From Girardia tigrina (taxonomy: Eukaryota): a stretch of 55,042 nt of DNA. The position numbers and the translations under genes are program-made. The stretch spans positions 1 through 55,042 of the forward strand of contig MQRK01209022.1 of the NCBI GenBank assembly GCA_001938485.1, read 5' to 3'. Below the pieces are notes generated by a model. It saw nothing but the letters and a program-made list of their open reading frames with translations, ran no database searches and had not been told where the DNA came from. Below are positions 1 to 40,649 of the stretch, piece by piece (the stretch's first letter is position 1; every line of letters begins with the position of its first letter).

Positions 1-630
1 ACAGTGCTTTTTAAGTTGCACATGTGTAAAATTGTAAAAATCAATACATAAGATTTTTCAAAAGTACCAGTGTCTTAAATCGATATCATATGCTTGATGC
101 ACATTTTAATTTTCTATTTGAATGTGCAATTCAAATTTTCATATATTGATTACTTTTCTCTATAATTAGTATAATGTGCAAATTTGCACATATTGCACAT
201 TGATTTTAAATGTACAAGGAAGCAGAATATCAAAAAAGTGCTCNNNNNNNNNNNNNNNNNNNNNNNNNNNNNNNNNNNNNNNNNNNNNNNNNNNNNNNNN
301 NNNNNNNNNNNNNNNNNNNNNNNNNNNNNNNNNNNNNNNNNNNNNNNNNNNNNNNNNNNNNNNNNNNNNNNNNNNNNNNNNNNNNNNNNNNNNNNNNNNN
401 NNNNNNNNNNNNNNNNNNNNNNNNNNNNNNNNNNNNNNNNNNNNNNNNNNNNNNNNNNNNNNNTACCATGGTTACCGTAACCAAGATACATAACATTTTA
501 TTTTACATATAAAAACCTATATAATACTTAAAACATGTATGGGATATTCTACACAAGAAGAATCATTATATTCATTTTTTTAATTTATTTAAAGTAACAC
601 ATTAAAACAAACAGTAACTTTAAAAAACAT

Positions 631-1157
631 TTATTTCTTTGAAATATAATTTTGACATAACGCTAAACACCTTTTATAAGCACAATGTGAACCATGTTCA
701 CGATATATACAAGTAATGTTTTTTGGTATCGCTTTTAGTTTNNNNNNNNNNNNNNNNNNNNNNNNNNNNNNNNNNNNNNNNNNNNNNNNNNNNNNNNNNN
801 NNNNNNNNNNNNNNNNNNNNNNNNNNNNNNNNNNNNNNNNNNNNAGATTACATCGTGATCGAATGTCTCGCATTAGACAATCCTGACAAAACTTGAAATT
901 GTGTTCTTCCCACGTTAATTTATGATGATGTAATGTTAAATAAGCATTTGTTCTTTGTGCTCTGTTTGAACAGCAATGCATTTTAAGTCTAATTACACCC
1001 AAACATTATATTACATTTGCAACACTAATTTAACTTACTGAAATACATAATGTAATGGATTAAACATATCATCAACAGACATTATACACAACTCTTTAAT
1101 CATATCCTCATCATTATTATCCACAAATCTTTCAAAATAAATAAAGAAGATAGACAT
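631..1157 (-). CDS. Polinton/Maverick-associated DEDD-like (exonuclease-fold) protein, two exons (1157-1039, 988-631), intron 989-1038; N gap inside
   Basis: Exon 1 reads MSIFFIYFERFVDNNDEDMIKELCIMSVDDMFNPLHYVF. Removing a 50-nt GTAAGT...TAATTAG intron joins it in frame to LKMHCCSNRAQRTNAYLTLHHHKLTWEE...C.YREHGSHCAYKRCLAL. This matches the Maverick-associated family pattern (D.xGF...KE...H..F...N.WL...H...W...C..H...CA). The first acidic position reads Y, suggesting decay. Confidence 0.65.
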
Positions 1158-1195
1158 TTTTCAACAATAACAATTTATTAACGTAACAACTTTTT

Positions 1196-1569
1196 TTATA
1201 ACAATTGGCGTTTAAGCCAGTCTATACAATAATTTCCACAAAGAAATGTTAGCGGATTTTGATACATTACATGATTATATATGACAGGTTGTTGAATTCG
1301 TTCCAATTTTGTTACCAACATTGATGGATAATACATCCCAAGTGGATCGAATACTCGTATAAGATCTGAAGTCACATGTACTGCAATCCAGTGTTCTCCT
1401 GGTAAATTAGCAGTCTGAGTATTAATTACATATCCTCCATCGAGTAGAGAATCTGGAACTTTATCCAGCGAATATACTCCACGGAATTGAGGATATCCTT
1501 TCAGTGCTTTTTCAATCTGATATGTACTATATATGTAAATATAAAAGGTTTAGATACAACTTACTTCAT
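1196..1569 (-). CDS. Adenain-type (Polinton PRO) cysteine protease, 111 aa, two exons (1569-1565, 1526-1196), intron 1527-1564
   Basis: Spliced product: MNTYQIEKALKGYPQFRGVYSLDKVPDSLLDGGYVINTQTANLPGEHWIAVHVTSDLIRVFDPLGMYYP...YNHVMYQNPLTFLCGNYCIDWLKRQLL*. Catalytic H (GEHW), D (FDPLG), oxyanion Q and C (CGNYC) are all present. The ATG is only reachable via the 38-nt GTAAGT...ATATAG intron. Confidence 0.88.
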
Positions 1570-1615
1570 ATATTATTTCTGTTCGTAATTGATTTTTTCA
1601 GTTCCAATGCCGTGT

Positions 1616-1705
1616 TTATACAATAACTGTACCATCTTTTCGTATTTGTATCTCACTATCAAATACTCCATATACATACATTGTAATATCATTATCTAAT
1701 GCCTT
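1616..1705 (-). pseudogene. C-terminal remnant of Polinton/adintovirus major capsid protein (double jelly-roll), 5'-truncated at ~1706
   Basis: KALDNDITMYVYGVFDSEIQIRKDGTVIV* matches the Polinton MCP C-terminal pattern (AL...IT..VY..F...I.I......V). It lies immediately upstream of the protease on the same strand. Confidence 0.7.
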
Positions 1706-2294
1706 ATGGAGGGGTGGTCCAGTGGTCCAGAACTCTCATTTTCCCCCTACTATTACTGGGAAAGTATGAGAAAAAAATGTAACAGAATGGATAAATTCTT
1801 GTCAAATATGCGCAACCAGAAAAAATACTGGAACAAAGACGAAAGTTCATTTGTGTCCAATGCCAGTATTTTAATCTCATGTTTCTTTCGATTCGACACT
1901 CGGATTGCTAACAAGAACGAAGCAGAGGACGGCTCAGATGACATTGACACACGACGAGATCATTCCAAGACTCCCGAGAACTTGCACGACAATCAACCAA
2001 TACAGATTAATGTAGATCGACATCCCTTTAATCCAAAAAACGTCGGCATATAACGTTAACCAAAACGGGCTCCCAAAACCAATCACATAGAACATGAGCG
2101 ATACAAAAAAAACAGATCAACGATTAGGAGCACATGCACAACGTCTACAAATTGTCTGAATCTCATCATTTGAACCAAGGCCGGAAAATATTTATTTTTA
2201 TCAACAAAAACAAATCGATCCATCCACTCAAACAAATCTCAGCCGATAAATCGATAACAATATTCGAGAATTCGTCGTTTTCGTTGACAAACAA

Positions 2295-3611
2295 ATGCGA
2301 ACTGACAATGAAGAGGCACATAGTTGTCAGCTGATATGTCGTGTCGACGAGATCGAGCTCGAGACCGATCGACGAGCGATTTTTGTCGATCGGGTTCGAT
2401 TGAAAAATCGACGGGAACGGTTTCCATTTGACAGCTTTTTGTCGGCCCATAACGGACGCCAGTTCCCGGAACTGATCGAGTCATTGGGACAAGCGCCTGG
2501 TCGATTGCACCGGACACATACGGTAAATCCAAGAGAAAAAATAAAAAATTATGTAACAAATTGCCACGGAATAACCCAGGAATTAGTTTGTGGACAGATG
2601 GGCGAGTATACAGCACTCGCGGAAATCCATCGCCACTTACAAGGCAATATTTTGGTAGGAAAAGATGTTCAGCTCGAACTAAAAGCATGTGCCATTCCCA
2701 TCAATTCATTAATGGATATTAGAGACACTTCAGCGGGAAAAGTGTTCGAAGAAAAATACAACCTAATAAATCAGAAAGGGCACTTTTATTCCTTGAAAGC
2801 CCTATTTCGAATAGTACTTCAGGAGGAGATACAACAACATTACCACTCTGCAATTCAGGATGCAAAAGCCGTTTTACAAATTTTCCTAAACGTGGAAGCA
2901 GATTGGACGGACACCATAATCTTTAAGGACACCCGCAGTCTTTTAGGATCTCCAAAATTTTCGAGAGCAAAAATTCCCGTAGAACCCGAAGATGTACAGA
3001 ACCTGCAAATAAATTATCCACCGTCTGTAACGATAGACCTTTGGATAATAGAAAAGGATACCACTCCACGAGCCGATATAAGAGGCATACCAAATGATTC
3101 TAAAATAAAATCCACTTCGAGATGGATTGCAGACATACCAACTGAGTCAATCCATGCAAATTTGGGGAGCCCTGTAATTATTGACCTAATGGAAGATGAC
3201 GACCTAGAATTGCATGCACCTCTTGATCAAGAATTATTACCCGAAGCACCATCTGTCTCTGCATTAGCCGCCTTTTTGCAAGACGAACAAAATGTTCAAG
3301 GCTTTCAGTCATTTATCGTTAGAACCTTTAAGGTTCCAGACCCAAATCCAACTTCCTTAATGTATGCGAGGGCACTACATAAATATCGTCCCGAGGATAG
3401 ATGCTCACCCAATTGTTGCGGTTGGAAAACGAGAAATAAGAGCAATTTAAAACACAAACGAAAAATGAAAATTTTATTATCAACAAATAAGTCCGGTGTC
3501 GTTGCTGAGATTCCATTTGGTGCTCGTCCTGGCACCCAGAGAAGAGTTTGCAATCCTAACAAGAAAAAATTAATTAAAAAACGCGACAAAAAACGAATAA
3601 ATTACCGGTAA
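2295..3611 (+). CDS. DEDDh 3'-5' exonuclease, REX4/ISG20-like, with long acidic then basic tail; N-terminus atypical
   Basis: Residues from ~2515 read VNPREKIKNYVTNCHGIT...LQGNILVGKDVQLELK...IRDTS...YSLKAL...LQEEIQQHYHSAIQDAKAVLQIF, following the REX4/ISG20 pattern (P...V.DY.T..SGI; ILVGH...DL; IRDT; SLK.L; IQ...HS..EDA.A). No clear ExoI DxE motif. Intronless. Confidence 0.75.
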   Translation: MRTDNEEAHSCQLICRVDEIELETDRRAIFVDRVRLKNRRERFPFDSFLSAHNGRQFPELIESLGQAPGRLHRTHTVNPREKIKNYVTNCHGITQELVCGQMGEYTALAEIHRHLQGNILVGKDVQLELKACAIPINSLMDIRDTSAGKVFEEKYNLINQKGHFYSLKALFRIVLQEEIQQHYHSAIQDAKAVLQIFLNVEADWTDTIIFKDTRSLLGSPKFSRAKIPVEPEDVQNLQINYPPSVTIDLWIIEKDTTPRADIRGIPNDSKIKSTSRWIADIPTESIHANLGSPVIIDLMEDDDLELHAPLDQELLPEAPSVSALAAFLQDEQNVQGFQSFIVRTFKVPDPNPTSLMYARALHKYRPEDRCSPNCCGWKTRNKSNLKHKRKMKILLSTNKSGVVAEIPFGARPGTQRRVCNPNKKKLIKKRDKKRINYR

Positions 3612-6349
3612 AGTAATCCGCAAGACCTTCGGGGCCAGCCGACCCTTCNNNNNNNNNNNNNNNNNNNNNNNNNNNNNNNNNNNNNNNNNNNNNNNNNNNN
3701 NNNNNNNNNNNNNNNNNNNNNNNNNNNNNNNAAAAAACAAAGAAATATTAATCAAATAATAAAGAATAATTAAAAACTCACGATGAGTCGGCCCTCGATT
3801 CTAAGAATAGCTCGGTGGCCTCATATGACCGCACACCAAGTTTGTTATTGTTGATGTAGGTCAGCACACGGACATTCAGTTCTATAATGAAAAAACAAAA
3901 ATCAAAATTTTTACAAAAATTAAACTGACCTACATTTTGNNNNNNNNNNNNNNNNNNNNNNNNNNNNNNNNNNNNNNNNNNNNNNNNNNNNNNNNNNNNN
4001 NNNNNNNNNNNNNNNNNNNNNNNNNNNNNNNNNNNNNNNNNNNNNNNNNNNNNNNNNNNNNNNNNNNNNNNNNNNNNNNNNNNNNNNNNNNNNNNNNNNN
4101 NNNNNNNNNNNNNNNNNNNNNNNNNNNNNNNNNNNNNNNNNNNNNNNNNNNNNNNNNNNNNNNNNNNNNNNNNNNNNNNNNNNNNNNNNNNNNNNNCCGA
4201 AAGCTTTTCTTTAACCGCAATATTCAGAAGGAACAAAATGTAATACGGGAATTTTATTTTATTATTTATTTTGTTAATACGTTATTCTATTAATAAAATT
4301 TTATGAGATCACATTTAGTTTATTATGTATTTATTGCTTAAATTAAGATTTAAATAAAGATTTCTTTTGATTATAATTTTTACCGAGTAATTACCTAAGT
4401 AAGTCGTCGCCAGCCGTCCTCGTCCCCTCGATGTCCGCCATGCCGAGAATCTGGAGCCCGTCGCCCGAGAATCGGGGTGAACGGCCGCTCCTCATTACCC
4501 AGGTCCACTCGATTAATGAGGCCGATTTTGCCGGCGGTAATTTCGGCGCACCGTGGGCCAACGCCTGGGGTCCGCGCGTATCGCCCCATCGTGANATTTG
4601 ATTNACAATCGATCGACAATAATTTTGTTTGAGAGTATAATTAAAATAACACATTAAAACAACTACTAATTTGATGAAATAAATGAGTTGATGAAATTTT
4701 ATTATTATTAGCGAAATGCGTTTTATAATTAGGAAAATATTTTAGAAAAATTTGATTTTAGTCTTAAGTTGAGTTTTAAAAATTTGCGATGAAATTTCAA
4801 CCGTGGTTGATAAGCGAATATAAACCCAGTACCGACCTACGAGAATTTAGAAAGATTTTTATGAATTATTCGATTCTGAACTTTATTTTAATTATTAGGT
4901 TGTTCGATATGAAACGGGTCAAAATTAAAGTAAAATGTAAATCGATTTTTTTTAAATAATAACATTTTATTTTTAATCAAAATGTCCCCCCATGTTGTCA
5001 ACACACTGTTGNTACTTAGTATTTTACTTGATAAATGAATATTTTCAACTGAGATTTTGAATAACGAAAATTGCCGAATTATATGTGAATTAAAATAAAT
5101 TTCGTCTCTGATGAGAATATTATAATCCAATTTTAAAATTTTACCGAGTGACAAATTCCGTATTGGATTTTAGTGAATTTTAATAGATTGTTAATGCCGA
5201 GTTTTATTGGGATTATCATTTCGTTGTTAAACTTTAAATAAGTTCAAAACGGTTTCGAACCAGAATTTAAAAGATAAAATCGAAATTATAGTTTAGAATT
5301 TTACGAAGTTGAGTTTTGCGATTCAAGTAGGAGAATAGTATTAACGACGAAAGAAAACACGATCTCAGCTTACGAAAAGTTTTGTTCGAGACAATCGAGT
5401 GACGACAAAANNNNNNNNNNNNNNNNNNNNNNNNNNNNNNNNNNNNNNNNNNNNNNNNNNNNNNNNNNNNNNNNNNNNNNNNNNNNNNNNNNNNNNNNNN
5501 NNNNNNNNNNNNNNNNNNNNNNNNNNNNNNNNNNNNNNNNNNNNNNNNNNNNNNNNNNNNNNNNNNNNNNNNNNNNNNNNNNNNNNNNNNNNNNNNNNNN
5601 NNNNNNNNNNNNNNNNNNNNNNNNNNNNNNNNNNNNNNNNNNNNNNNNNNNNNNNNNNNNNNNNNNNNNNNNNNNNNNNNNNNNNNNNNNNNNNNNNNNN
5701 NNNNNNNNNNNNNNNNNNNNNNNNNNNNNNNNNNNNTAGGAAAGAGACTAATTTAAGGAACAATGTAATTGGATAGATGGGTTGTGACTGACCCGTAATA
5801 GTCACTGGGGGCTCAGAGTCTTCAAAAATGTTTCAAACAAAAGGGTCGTGACACAATCCTCCATATTACCCCTCTATAAATAACTATCCAGTTCATTACC
5901 CTCAACCAGAAGATGGATTGATCCACATTGAGAGCGATTTTGTGTCAACAGTCCGTTCCGACGGGAGAAAGAAAACAACAGTCTGTACCGACGGGCGAGA
6001 ATACCACCCCACGGAGATTCCTCAGGCTGTGAAAAAAGTATTTTCCAACTGTGCGAGAACTTTGATCAAAGGACAAAAAAACATTGATCGATGTTTTATT
6101 GTTTATCTATTATTATTTTTATTTTTTTTTAACATTTTGGACATTTTGGTTTCGTGATATCTTGCTTATCTAACTTGCTTAAATTTTTTATTTTATATAC
6201 AGTTATGGGGACATAACTTTTATGAGCCCCGTACGAATGTTCGATAAATAATAAAATGTTATCAAATAATAGTAGATTACTATTATTTTTCTTAATTATT
6301 TGATAAATTTTTAAATTTAATTATTTTTATTTATAGTTGTAGTACCCTA

Positions 6350-7211
6350 CTTATTACGCCAGTTTGTAGAACAACTTATTCTTCTAGTTAACAGGACAGA
6401 GATATTACAATAGTAATTAATTTATAGTAATAGTAATTAATTAATTACAATAGATATTACAATAATACCCCACATGTAGAACTATCAAAAGTAAATTTTA
6501 CATAAACAAATAATAATTAAAAAGAAACACAGTAGCTCCGCTCTTCTTGGTGAGGTACTATTGTAATTGTAATATCTCTCGATATTTTTTTTATTTTTTT
6601 ATTATATTCCCTGTACATAATTGTTTTTGTTCTTTAAGGGTGATGTGTATGTATTTTTATTTATTTATTTATGTACTATTATCAAAAGATAATATATTAA
6701 AAAAATCAATAAATGTATTGACAATTAAAATAATAATTAACTGTTGGAAATTGCAATTGAAGATTGGATTTCCAACCAATTTCCGTCCGAATAAATTGTC
6801 AAGTTCTCAGTTGCCAATTTCGCCTGCACGACAATCGACCGGATATTATGGCATCTTCGGATCAATTTTCTTGTCGACCATAAAACTGTTCTACCAACAG
6901 ATCAATTGTTCGTCTATCTAGAACGTTTATTCATACAAATCAATCGTTCGTCTATCAAAAACGTTTATTCATACGGATCAATCGTTTGCCTATCAAAAAG
7001 CTTTTATTTATACAGGTTAATTGTTATCACTAGTCTCCCAATCAAGTTTCGTTAAAAGTTTATTAAATTTCGTTCTTTTATTTTAACTTATATTGAATTA
7101 ACCTAGTTTTGTGTCAGGTTAGTTTAATATAAATATTTTTCATGTAGAACAGCTTATTCAACGGTCCTGTTAACTAGAAGAATAAGTTCTTCTACAAACT
7201 GGCGTAATAAG
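6350..7211. mobile_element. Foldback/MITE-like element with 48-bp inverted repeats and an internal ~38-bp tandem repeat
   Basis: 6350-6397 is the reverse complement of 7164-7211 (47/48 identical). About three copies of atcaatcgttcgtctatcaaaaacgtttattcatac lie at ~6900-7015. Confidence 0.6.
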
Positions 7212-8099
7212 TTTAATAATAATAATAATAATAATAATAAGATACTACAATAGTTATAAAATAAATAGTACAAAAAAATTATTAATAATATCATATTATT
7301 TATAATTTTAAAGTTTAAAAATTAAGAAAGGCCTAGAGGCCAAAAGGACAAAATCAGGCATAAATAAAGTGATTCATGTAGAATCAAGGACCAAGTACAG
7401 ATCATGGGTCAGTTAAGTTGGAGAGCTATATATTGAGCGTTGAAAGTGTAGGCGGTTGACATAAATTAAAATTTAATTAGGTAAGTGTAAAATTAATGTT
7501 GGACATAAATTAAAATTTGAATAGGAAAATCAATTGCGAGAAGCTTAGAAGCTAAAGGTACCAGCGGAGGAGAAATTGAGATTTTGTCAAGGATTATTGG
7601 ATAGAGAATTTGTATTGTGAACATTTGAATTAAGAAGTCTCGTTGGAAATTAAATTGGACCAAGAAATCCCGTTTCGATTAAATTTCGAAAACATCGCTG
7701 AAGGGTCCGATTAGGAAGTCAAAAACTTAATCGGTTAATATTGATATTATATTATTTATTTCAATTTTGATAAATCATTTAAATTAATTGGTAATAATTT
7801 TAATAAATTTTAGTAAAAGTTTCTTTTAAAATTATATTTTTATTTACATCAAAATCTCTTACAAATAAATTGATTTTTGATATTGAAGGATGGTCTCTTC
7901 AATCAAAATTTAATACACACATCTAATATGTGTTAGGCTATTTTTTAATCATACAAATTGTAACTATTGTAATTAATCAATAAATTTATTTGAAAAAAAC
8001 AGTCTTATTGTTATCATTAAATTTATAAAGAACAAAAATAAAGTTCGTAATTTATAAAATTGATCTACCGTTCTAAGCACACCACTTAGATCGTCGATC

Positions 8100-8514
8100 C
8101 AGCGGAAAGTAATTTTTGCTTAGTCTTTGAGGAATTTATAACCGTCCCCCAGAGACCCAACATTTTGTATCTATCTGTGTTTTATCAGCGACGTTCATCC
8201 TATATCCCATTTATCCGCGATGAAGACTCTTTTATGCCTCTCTACGATATTGATTATCTTTGGTTTATCAGCGATATGCATTGTATTTTTGGCTTTCTGA
8301 AATCGTGCCTCGTCTGTCACTTTCCGGTAGAATCTTGCTGCTAAATTACTTACCTGAAAATTTCGATCGAGTATTTCATCGTTTTTCTTTTTCCAACATA
8401 ACTCAAATCCGAACTCACTCTGAAAATTTATCCCGCCTATTATGTCTGGTTTAATGTCAGTTACAACTATAAACGCTATATTTCTCTGTTTGTCTTTGAT
8501 ATTTACATTCACTG
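8100..8514 (-). pseudogene. Ty3/gypsy pol remnant (end of protease to start of RT)
   Basis: VNVNIKDKQRNIAFIVVTDIKPDIIGGINFQ...HKRVFIADKWDIG*TSLIKH. It continues the protease frame at 9784 once the insertion is removed. Confidence 0.8.
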
Positions 8515-9783
8515 TGGTCGCGCTGCGATAGCTTTCGACCCTTTATTTGTAATTTAAATTAAATTAATAAAAATTAAATAATTAAAATGAAAGTAAAATT
8601 AAATCATTTAAATAAAATTTAAATTAATTAAATTAAATAAATATATATAAGTATATATATAAATAGATATGTGAAATCATCACGTTCATATGGTTTTGTG
8701 ATGATGCAAATGCCATATGAATTCCGCTTTCGATTCTTTGCGGTTTTTTCTGTTCTTCGGTTTCGGTTTTAAAAAGCAGCACAACTCAATGCCATCTTGA
8801 AAAACGTTTTAGAAATTTCGAACGATAATATTCAATAACTGTTCAGAAATTCCTCCATTTACCAATTAATTGTGAATATTATTCATTTAAAAAAAATCAA
8901 ATAATTGAGTCACGTGATTTGTTGTGACATCAATTTCCTTTGTCTCTTCGGCAGATCTGATTGGCCGCATGCGTTATCGAATCGTTGCGAGAATTCGGTA
9001 ACAGAGATTATGATGTTTTATTTTTGAATTGTGACGAGTCGCGATTTTGTTTGCGTTGTGTGTCACAGTTTTTGTTTTTGATTTCAAATGAAATTTTTTT
9101 TTGATTTGCTCGATAAAAAAGTGTTTTCTGTAAAAAGAAATTTGTGAGAGTGATTACAATTTAATAAAAAATTTCGTTTTTGATGATAAAAAATAAAACT
9201 GTTTTAATGATGACTAAATGCTTTTTGTCGAAATATTGTCTCAAAATTGGAGAATAATTGTAAAGTAATTTATTACGAGGTTTCATTTGAGATGGAAGAA
9301 TCAATAAACAAATTGACAAATATAATACAACTTCTGTGTGAATTTGTTCGAGGATGTGATAATCGATTTGCAGTTGAGCGTGAAGGTCCAGCACTGTGCA
9401 GAGTGACATGGAAACTTTCGGAGAATTGCAATCATGTTTTATTGCTTTTTCGGTCAAAATAACTCAGTGCTACACGTTGATTGTGATGTACACTCAAATG
9501 AATTATTTCTGAACCTACGGAGAAAGATCGAATCACACTGGCAAGAATTATTGCAAGATGATTGCCCCTTAGAATTATCAAAAGAAAAACGTGACAGAAT
9601 CAATAATTTTTTAATGAGATTAAAGTGTAAATTTTCTGAATGGCTGTTCAACAACAATGATGTATCTATCGATTCAAATGAAAATTCAAATGATCCCGAT
9701 GTCACCGAGAACCTCGACAATATCGCCCGTAAAATGGGAAGCAATCAATCAAATAATAAAAGAACCTCTGCTGAGATACAACA
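8515..9783 (+). mobile_element. 1269-bp TG...CA insertion (solo-LTR or non-autonomous element) with 5-bp TSD CACTG, carrying a frameshifted ORF (~9247-9780)
   Basis: CACTG occurs at 8510-8514 and 9784-9788; termini are TGGTCG...ACAACA; AATAAA lies near 9755. Excision restores the gypsy protease frame ECIGKISV|NVNIKDKQ. Confidence 0.8.
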
Positions 9784-40360: not shown

Positions 40361-40484
40361 TGGTGCAAAACAATTAATTAGAGAAATATTTCGATCAAAT
40401 ATTTCCCATGGCAAAAACCGATCAAAAGGCGTGCTGCATCATGTTAAGGCCATAACGGCGCATGATAAATTCACCGAGGATCTA

Positions 40485-40649
40485 GAATCCGATGTCACTT
40501 TAGATGTCAAACCCGATGTCCTCAATGGCGTGCCCGATGAACAGACTCGTGTTAGAAATGCCAGAACATTTACGCCAGCTAAAAACGCGATGCAATCTGG
40601 AACCTCTTGCACGAGGAATTGGAGAATCGAATTCGATCAGCAAGAGAGA
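40485..40649 (+). pseudogene. NDUFS4: Fragment of complex I subunit NDUFS4
   Basis: GVPDEQTRVRNARTFTPAKNAMQSGTSCTRNWRIEFDQQER versus the conserved [41 protein letters not shown]. Similarity stops abruptly before WENPLMGW. Confidence 0.9.

Follow-up and report, generated by a model that had tools for sequence, protein, structure and literature searches.

Minus-strand positions 631–1735 of the window (the whole 55,042-nt stretch of DNA analysed here) hold a truncated Polinton/adintovirus-type cassette, consisting of an upstream remnant, an adenain protease and a DEDD-fold accessory gene (gene 3), in which the protease and gene 3 each appear to be interrupted by one very short intron. We consider it probable, at roughly 0.8, that the cassette is a dead and incomplete copy from a Polinton/adintovirus-type lineage, and that short U2-type introns entered this lineage when it was mobile and have persisted since, with splicing presumably performed by the host. 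The features are as follows.

1616–1735, minus strand: 39-codon open stretch ending in a stop and truncated upstream; candidate for the end (~30 codons) of a major capsid gene, by position and motif.
1565–1569, minus strand (read 1569–1565): first coding exon of the protease, ATG AA (a start codon and two further bases); the sole solution with a consensus donor.
1527–1564, minus strand: putative intron 1, 38 nt, GTAAGT...ATATAG, phase 2, 79% A+T; counterparts of 37–47 nt inferred in five relatives.
1196–1526, minus strand: protease exon 2, predicted adenain (peptidase C5-type) catalytic domain, from predicted-structure matches.
1158–1195, minus strand: 38-nt spacer; AATAAA at 1179 and, across the protease stop, a TATA-like run, both as consensus matches only.
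1039–1157, minus strand: gene 3 exon 1, 39 codons plus 2 nt, ATG at 1157; placed by a profile of intronless homologs and aligned without gaps to residues 132–170 of the relative P0042.
989–1038, minus strand: putative intron 2, 50 nt, GTAAGT...TAATTAG, phase 2, 74% A+T; splice position shared by P0206 and P0200.
631–988, minus strand: gene 3 exon 2, the rest of the predicted DEDD/DnaQ-fold accessory protein, containing a run of N; placed at profile positions 46–159, with the fold taken from P0202.

The sequence-only reading had described three packed minus-strand genes here, namely the end of a major capsid gene, an adenain protease and a DEDD-like gene. The adenain and DEDD-like genes were borne out, and the spacers of 46 and 38 nt retain viral-style tight packing; the capsid label found no counterpart in any library, and for the 1616–1735 remnant Pfam, NCBIfam, PHROGs, PDB and phage records were all without a match. 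By its position and a sequence motif, the remnant is probably the C-terminal end of a major capsid gene. The sequence upstream of the protease is retained in close relatives and is read in another frame in P0010, P0013 and P0018. No evidence was obtained for the intron in the capsid gene that had been implied: a candidate upstream of the remnant, with a pyrimidine-rich AG near 1758, was rejected because stops follow in the required frame.

The predicted structure of protease exon 2 (pLDDT 93.6) matched, best among viral models, the adenain of a box turtle adintovirus (E 2.8e-9, TM 0.87), and against solved chains adenovirus proteases came top (Z 12.2, rmsd 1.9–2.0 over 108 residues). Profile comparison also matched adenain (E 7e-6), with the His, Asp/Glu, Gln and Cys positions aligned. 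In the window protease these are H45, D60, Q89 and C96 (exon-2 translation numbering), which are invariant in our alignment A1, so the catalytic residues are intact, as had been stated. The window exon gave no Pfam match; its relatives P0007 and P0049 pass the C5 cut-off. Predicted fold and catalytic residues together confirm the assignment of the protease as adenain-type.

In the protease frame there is no unspliced in-frame ATG between 1640 and the conserved Gly. Four combinations of ATG, GT and AG would supply a start, and only one of the four, that with the 38-nt intron, uses the consensus donor GTAAGT; it places the Gly at residue 18. On a profile of 20 proteases from outside the clade described below, exon 2 then starts at position 3. 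The coordinates proposed earlier (an ATG AA exon and a 38-nt phase 2 intron at 1564–1527) were thus confirmed. GTAAGT occurs 22 times in the window on both strands, and twice in the cassette versus 0.52 expected (4.4e-4 per site). This frequency is by itself uninformative; what is telling is the positions, each at the one place where a donor is required. A third candidate intron (153–114) did not hold up: its motifs are present, but in no phase does it connect long frames (codons open upstream/downstream: 2/12, 17/1 and 29/8), and candidates of this type are common, 125 of 262 minus-strand GTAA sites having a YAG 30–60 nt downstream. A ciliate-type code or stop-codon read-through was rejected, since neither joins the two frames of gene 3 nor supplies a start.

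We looked for intron 1 in relatives of the protease. A word search returned 7 relatives from 7 candidates, and a profile search returned 6,472 matches at E 0.001, the best 150 of which were used. The resulting alignment held 171 rows (four long proteins were left out), and a quick tree was built from the 153 rows left once 17 near-duplicates within clusters and a single short row had been dropped, using 100 columns of the protease core only, so that the N-termini, being excluded, were unable to drive it. The window protease fell within a set of 16 rows (SH-aLRT 89; the node was picked after viewing the tree), with an inner set of seven rows at SH-aLRT 97. A Met 17–25 residues before the Gly is found in 1 of the 16 clade rows versus 118 of 137 rows outside (Fisher p 1e-10, a value inflated by kinship). 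Clade ORFs instead start at an internal codon or extend back through unrelated, A+T-rich-looking sequence. All nine extended clade ORFs have Ser at the junction, as expected if an AG acceptor is read through in frame, versus none of 52 normal starts outside the clade (31 Asn, 7 Asp).

Back-translation, in which the DNA of the relatives is inferred from protein, showed that five of the nine extended ORFs fit the pattern ATG-NN/GTA (the slash marking the exon–intron boundary), each in a single placement. The introns implied are 41, 40, 42, 47 and 37 nt long, with 54–184 of 2000 shuffles fitting in each case, and their lengths span all three classes modulo 3, as expected of non-coding inserts. 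The five fitting ORFs are those with at least 15 upstream residues, and the four that do not fit have 10–14. The position of intron 1 is common, as far as this back-translation goes, to proteases ranging from 86% to about 42% identity. Within the clade, P0038 has a normal start, for which intron loss, misplacement or a spliced cDNA are possible explanations; its cluster mate P0193 was rejected as an unspliced partner because it has the same normal start. P0003 is also readable unspliced from its ATG. No spliced product was seen among close relatives in the ORF-called protein sets. One further clade protease, P0169, is degenerate and probably a chimeric gene model, the C-terminal part of which we take to resemble histone H2A.

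Clade members lie on contigs of up to 14,185 and 17,960 nt, and one cluster comprises 42 slightly different copies. Whole adintoviruses measure 13.3–14.6 kb, according to PMC8363768; the two contigs are thus the size of whole adintoviruses, which supports a mobile ancestor. A search of bacterial and archaeal genome contigs for mis-binned relatives gave 28 pattern matches, none of them confirmed, phage records held no relatives, and the ESM Atlas had no usable match for P0179 or for part of P0049.

Gene 3 admits ten splicing solutions, two of which use GTAAGT; the 50-nt one retains all of exon 2. The phase 2 intron proposed at 1038–989, joining two frames, was upheld, and the exons are colinear on an intronless profile. 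This profile, built from seven intronless homologs, five of which had been found with a query containing the window's own pieces, placed exon 1 at positions 1–40 (E 1.1e-10) and exon 2 at 46–159 (E 1.5e-14) in a search of 2,268 six-frame segments. In the spliced window protein the spacing over the junction is 27, versus 29 in all five homologs compared. P0042 and P0049, which were found as proteases independently of gene 3, continue in frame into a gene-3 homolog, so the order protease to gene 3 recurs in both; exon 1 of the window is the part that aligns with P0042, and P0049 matches both exons. With no stop between protease and homolog, these two are either read-through ORFs or true fusions.

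A small gene-3 profile search gave nine matches at E 1 among 1,700 candidates: four intronless proteins (164–179 residues), one partial protein, the window's own exon-1 ORF, P0206, P0025 and P0200. P0206 (8 members) is the exon-1 ORF of a relative and stops at the codon where the window's exon-1 ORF stops, and P0025 and P0200 (11 members) are exon-2 clusters. At the same site P0200 implies a 43-nt intron, with a donor fit that is weak alone (183 of 2000 shuffles). Taken with the protease data, a shared intron position is implied in five protease relatives and two gene-3 relatives, in line with the intron conservation expected of other copies, and both introns appear to be inherited features of the lineage rather than damage to this copy.

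The model of P0202, a natural intronless homolog, shows a DEDD fold (pLDDT 85.4), in agreement with the earlier naming of the gene as DEDD-like. Its best fold matches are to the MAEL domain of Maelstrom (Z 11.7, rmsd 3.1, 152 residues aligned) and to the arenavirus NP exonuclease domain (Z 10.9, rmsd 2.8, 138 aligned), though at 7–13% identity and with many DEDD nucleases within 1–2 Z units. The Maelstrom and arenavirus nucleoprotein exonuclease domains are tied to RNA silencing or immune evasion; judged by title, no literature linking Polintons and Maelstrom was found. Further matches of the model are to ichnovirus ORFs and to an uncharacterised Drosophila-associated adintovirus 2 protein (E 3e-8, TM 0.74). 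Pfam, NCBIfam and PHROGs give gene 3 no name, and the PDB no meaningful sequence match. We predict that gene 3 encodes a DEDD/DnaQ-fold accessory protein; the family keeps the first acidic motif, from which the window copy departs. Also retained in members P0201–P0204 and P0207 are Cys/His residues at the C-terminus, which could coordinate zinc. A suspected second gene-3 copy at 5852–6154 was rejected for want of a match.

As a whole the window is eukaryotic DNA rich in A+T, and N makes up 5.9% of it. When 206 of its open segments (26 + 150 + 30, mostly those of at least 29% G+C and 50 codons) were scanned against Pfam, the only matches were transposon debris, an RNase T-type ORF and a disrupted piece of NDUFS4. 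The debris comprises zinc-knuckle, reverse transcriptase plus GIY-YIG (Penelope-like), other reverse transcriptase, hAT, integrase zinc-binding and DUF5641 pieces at 10.3, 16.0–16.8, 27.2, 33.0, 40.9–41.2, 48.3 and 54.7 kb. The NDUFS4 (mitochondrial complex I) fragment at 40461–40646 (plus strand) ends abruptly beside a reverse-transcriptase piece and resembles a pseudogene; its best chains are mammalian and insect (E 2e-11 to 6e-9), with fungal chains far lower, which makes an animal host probable. At 2250–3611 (plus strand), in a G+C-richer block adjoining the truncated end of the cassette, a 453-codon open frame carries an RNase T/DEDDh exonuclease domain (E 9e-8); it is unlike gene 3, and its exact sequence from 2295 is absent from the protein collection. 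Three 38-nt tandem units at 6881–6994 lie between 77-nt inverted repeats (84%; 6321–6397 and 7164–7240, 766 nt apart), possibly a small non-autonomous DNA transposon. Downstream of gene 3, a short open stretch with Cys/His residues at 150–497 (minus strand), mostly N, may be a further gene of the element.

PolB and integrase define the Polinton/adintovirus group, as set out in PMC8502044. Neither PolB nor a packaging ATPase was matched among the 206 scanned segments, the cassette running towards the left end of the window and being truncated on the right. No retrovirus-like integrase lies near the cassette, the integrase zinc-binding piece at 48.3 kb being 46 kb away. As for terminal repeats, nothing in 1–4000 is repeated elsewhere in the window, and 1–9000 contains only A+T-rich, chance-like pairs. 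For the double jelly-roll major capsid protein the one candidate is the 39-codon remnant, which matched nothing. The same 206 segments (low-G+C and short ones mostly omitted) include no host multi-exon gene for comparison of intron sizes. The cassette probably works like a Polinton/adintovirus morphogenesis cassette and probably belongs to such an element, whose defining genes would lie beyond the window.

We weighed three other explanations. The one that survives best, unlikely as we judge it, is that the introns were gained after integration, in the domesticated cassette of one host lineage or by introners, the relatives then being host orthologs. Truncation of the window copy among transposon debris, with no replication genes seen in the window, fits such a history, as does the acquisition after integration of most introners in dinoflagellate Polinton-like elements (PMC11957031). 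It accords poorly with one intron position across the whole identity range of the proteases, with the viral gene packing kept here and with the cluster of 42 slightly different copies, which fits a multicopy element; nor is either intron repeated within the 55-kb window. Considerably less probable is the decay of an intronless element, whereby the protease lost its start, gene 3 took up a frameshifting insertion and the GT...AG ends arose by chance. That this copy is a fragment, that its gene 3 deviates in the first acidic motif and that DNA so rich in A+T has many GT...AG pairs would all be explained, but not that independent relatives share the boundaries while differing in interiors and lengths, that both required sites carry an exact GTAAGT, or that the exons remain open and conserved. 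Synthesis of the protease without splicing, from a non-ATG start or as a capsid–protease fusion through frameshift or read-through, is just as improbable: candidate Hexon-Adenain frameshift fusions are mentioned for adintoviruses (10.1101/2024.03.25.586562) and in the window the protease is in frame with the upstream remnant, but three stops separate them, the P0018 protease lies in a different frame relative to its upstream gene, and neither the conserved ATG-NN/GTA nor gene 3 is explained.

The GTAAGT...TAG ends, and a frame that becomes colinear with intronless homologs after removal, support the assignment of both introns as spliceosomal and U2-type. Use of the host spliceosome is routine in adenoviruses, whose protease is of the same family, and in other nuclear DNA viruses. 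Splicing in these viruses mostly joins leaders to message bodies, and a micro-intron directly after the protease start codon is not known from them.

The cassette resembles Polintons/Mavericks and adintoviruses (PMC8502044, PMC8097293) in its adenain, the structural match of its accessory gene, its tight packing and its integration into a genome that is transposon-rich and probably animal, and differs from them in that its protease and accessory gene carry conserved short introns, the core genes there being described as intronless. Intact vertebrate elements are reported to be without introns (PMC8097293, crediting Kapitonov and Jurka 2006), and nematode Mavericks have intronless core genes and captured host cargo genes with introns (10.1101/2022.07.12.499685); together with PMC10120064 these agree with the starting premise that Polinton core genes are normally single ORFs. 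Nematode Mavericks thus also hold spliceosomal introns, but in cargo, whereas here they would interrupt a core virion-maturation gene. The introners carried by dinoflagellate Maverick/Polinton-like elements (PMC11957031, as above) are repeated, transposon-derived and mostly post-integration; the window introns are position-conserved, sequence-diverged and unrepeated in the window. Cryptophyte Polinton-like viruses have self-splicing group I introns of 309–376 nt near the capsid gene (PMC12220804), in contrast to the GT-AG introns of 38–50 nt described here. In the literature, as far as its accessible text extends, we found no Polinton core gene described as having conserved spliceosomal introns, although Repbase or subscription papers could hold an earlier mention; the accessible parts of PMC10748475, PMC11296320, PMC11244446 and 10.64898/2026.10.13.758929 contain nothing on such introns. 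Surveys assume introns to be absent or ignore them, and use prokaryotic gene callers (PMC10120064; 10.1101/2025.04.19.649669). The earlier claim that ORF-based discovery would miss the lineage was overstated, because the relatives did turn up in ORF-called protein sets, their N-termini incorrect or their sequence split; the genes of the lineage are mis-annotated rather than invisible.

The reading that we prefer, intron gain in a mobile lineage, would proceed as follows. The introns would have arisen in a mobile ancestor and then been retained, since one position spans proteases from high to low identity and clade members lie on long contigs. Transcription of the cassette genes would take place in the host nucleus, and the host's spliceosome would remove the introns. 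In this copy the unspliced protease message reads start codon, one codon, stop, and that of gene 3 stops after codon 40. With unspliced products of two and 40 codons, splicing is all-or-none for both proteins of this copy, and the lineage probably needs host splicing to make them; any use of this as a switch for regulation would be speculative. Judging by the read-through ORFs of the relatives, the introns keep their position and phase and vary freely in length (37–50 nt) and interior. Retention is most likely because a 5′-proximal intron would make the message host-like and aid its expression. A more speculative reason is that introns protect against silencing directed at foreign DNA without introns, as demonstrated for HUSH in humans (PMC8770142). 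We entertain only tentatively, and rather doubt, a broader picture in which the clade consists of active integrating nuclear DNA viruses of small animals, with start-proximal micro-introns in most genes (capsid and polymerase included) that gate late-gene expression, let viral messages pass as the host's and escape surveillance aimed at intronless foreign DNA, and with whole genomes already assembled in metagenomes under wrong annotation.

The cassette type itself is already known; the novelty, for which the sequence comparisons give comparatively good support, would lie in conserved short introns in a Polinton-type protease and accessory gene. Gene models of the clade need correction. Reads across the junctions would provide an assay for the expression of late genes that contaminating DNA does not confound, and would bear on the question of a virion programme in Polintons. 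If a gene for virion maturation does carry conserved spliceosomal introns, its expression would be nuclear and host-driven, as opposed to relying on the cytoplasmic factory of giant viruses, and intron gain would be able to become fixed in a mobile DNA virus-like element.
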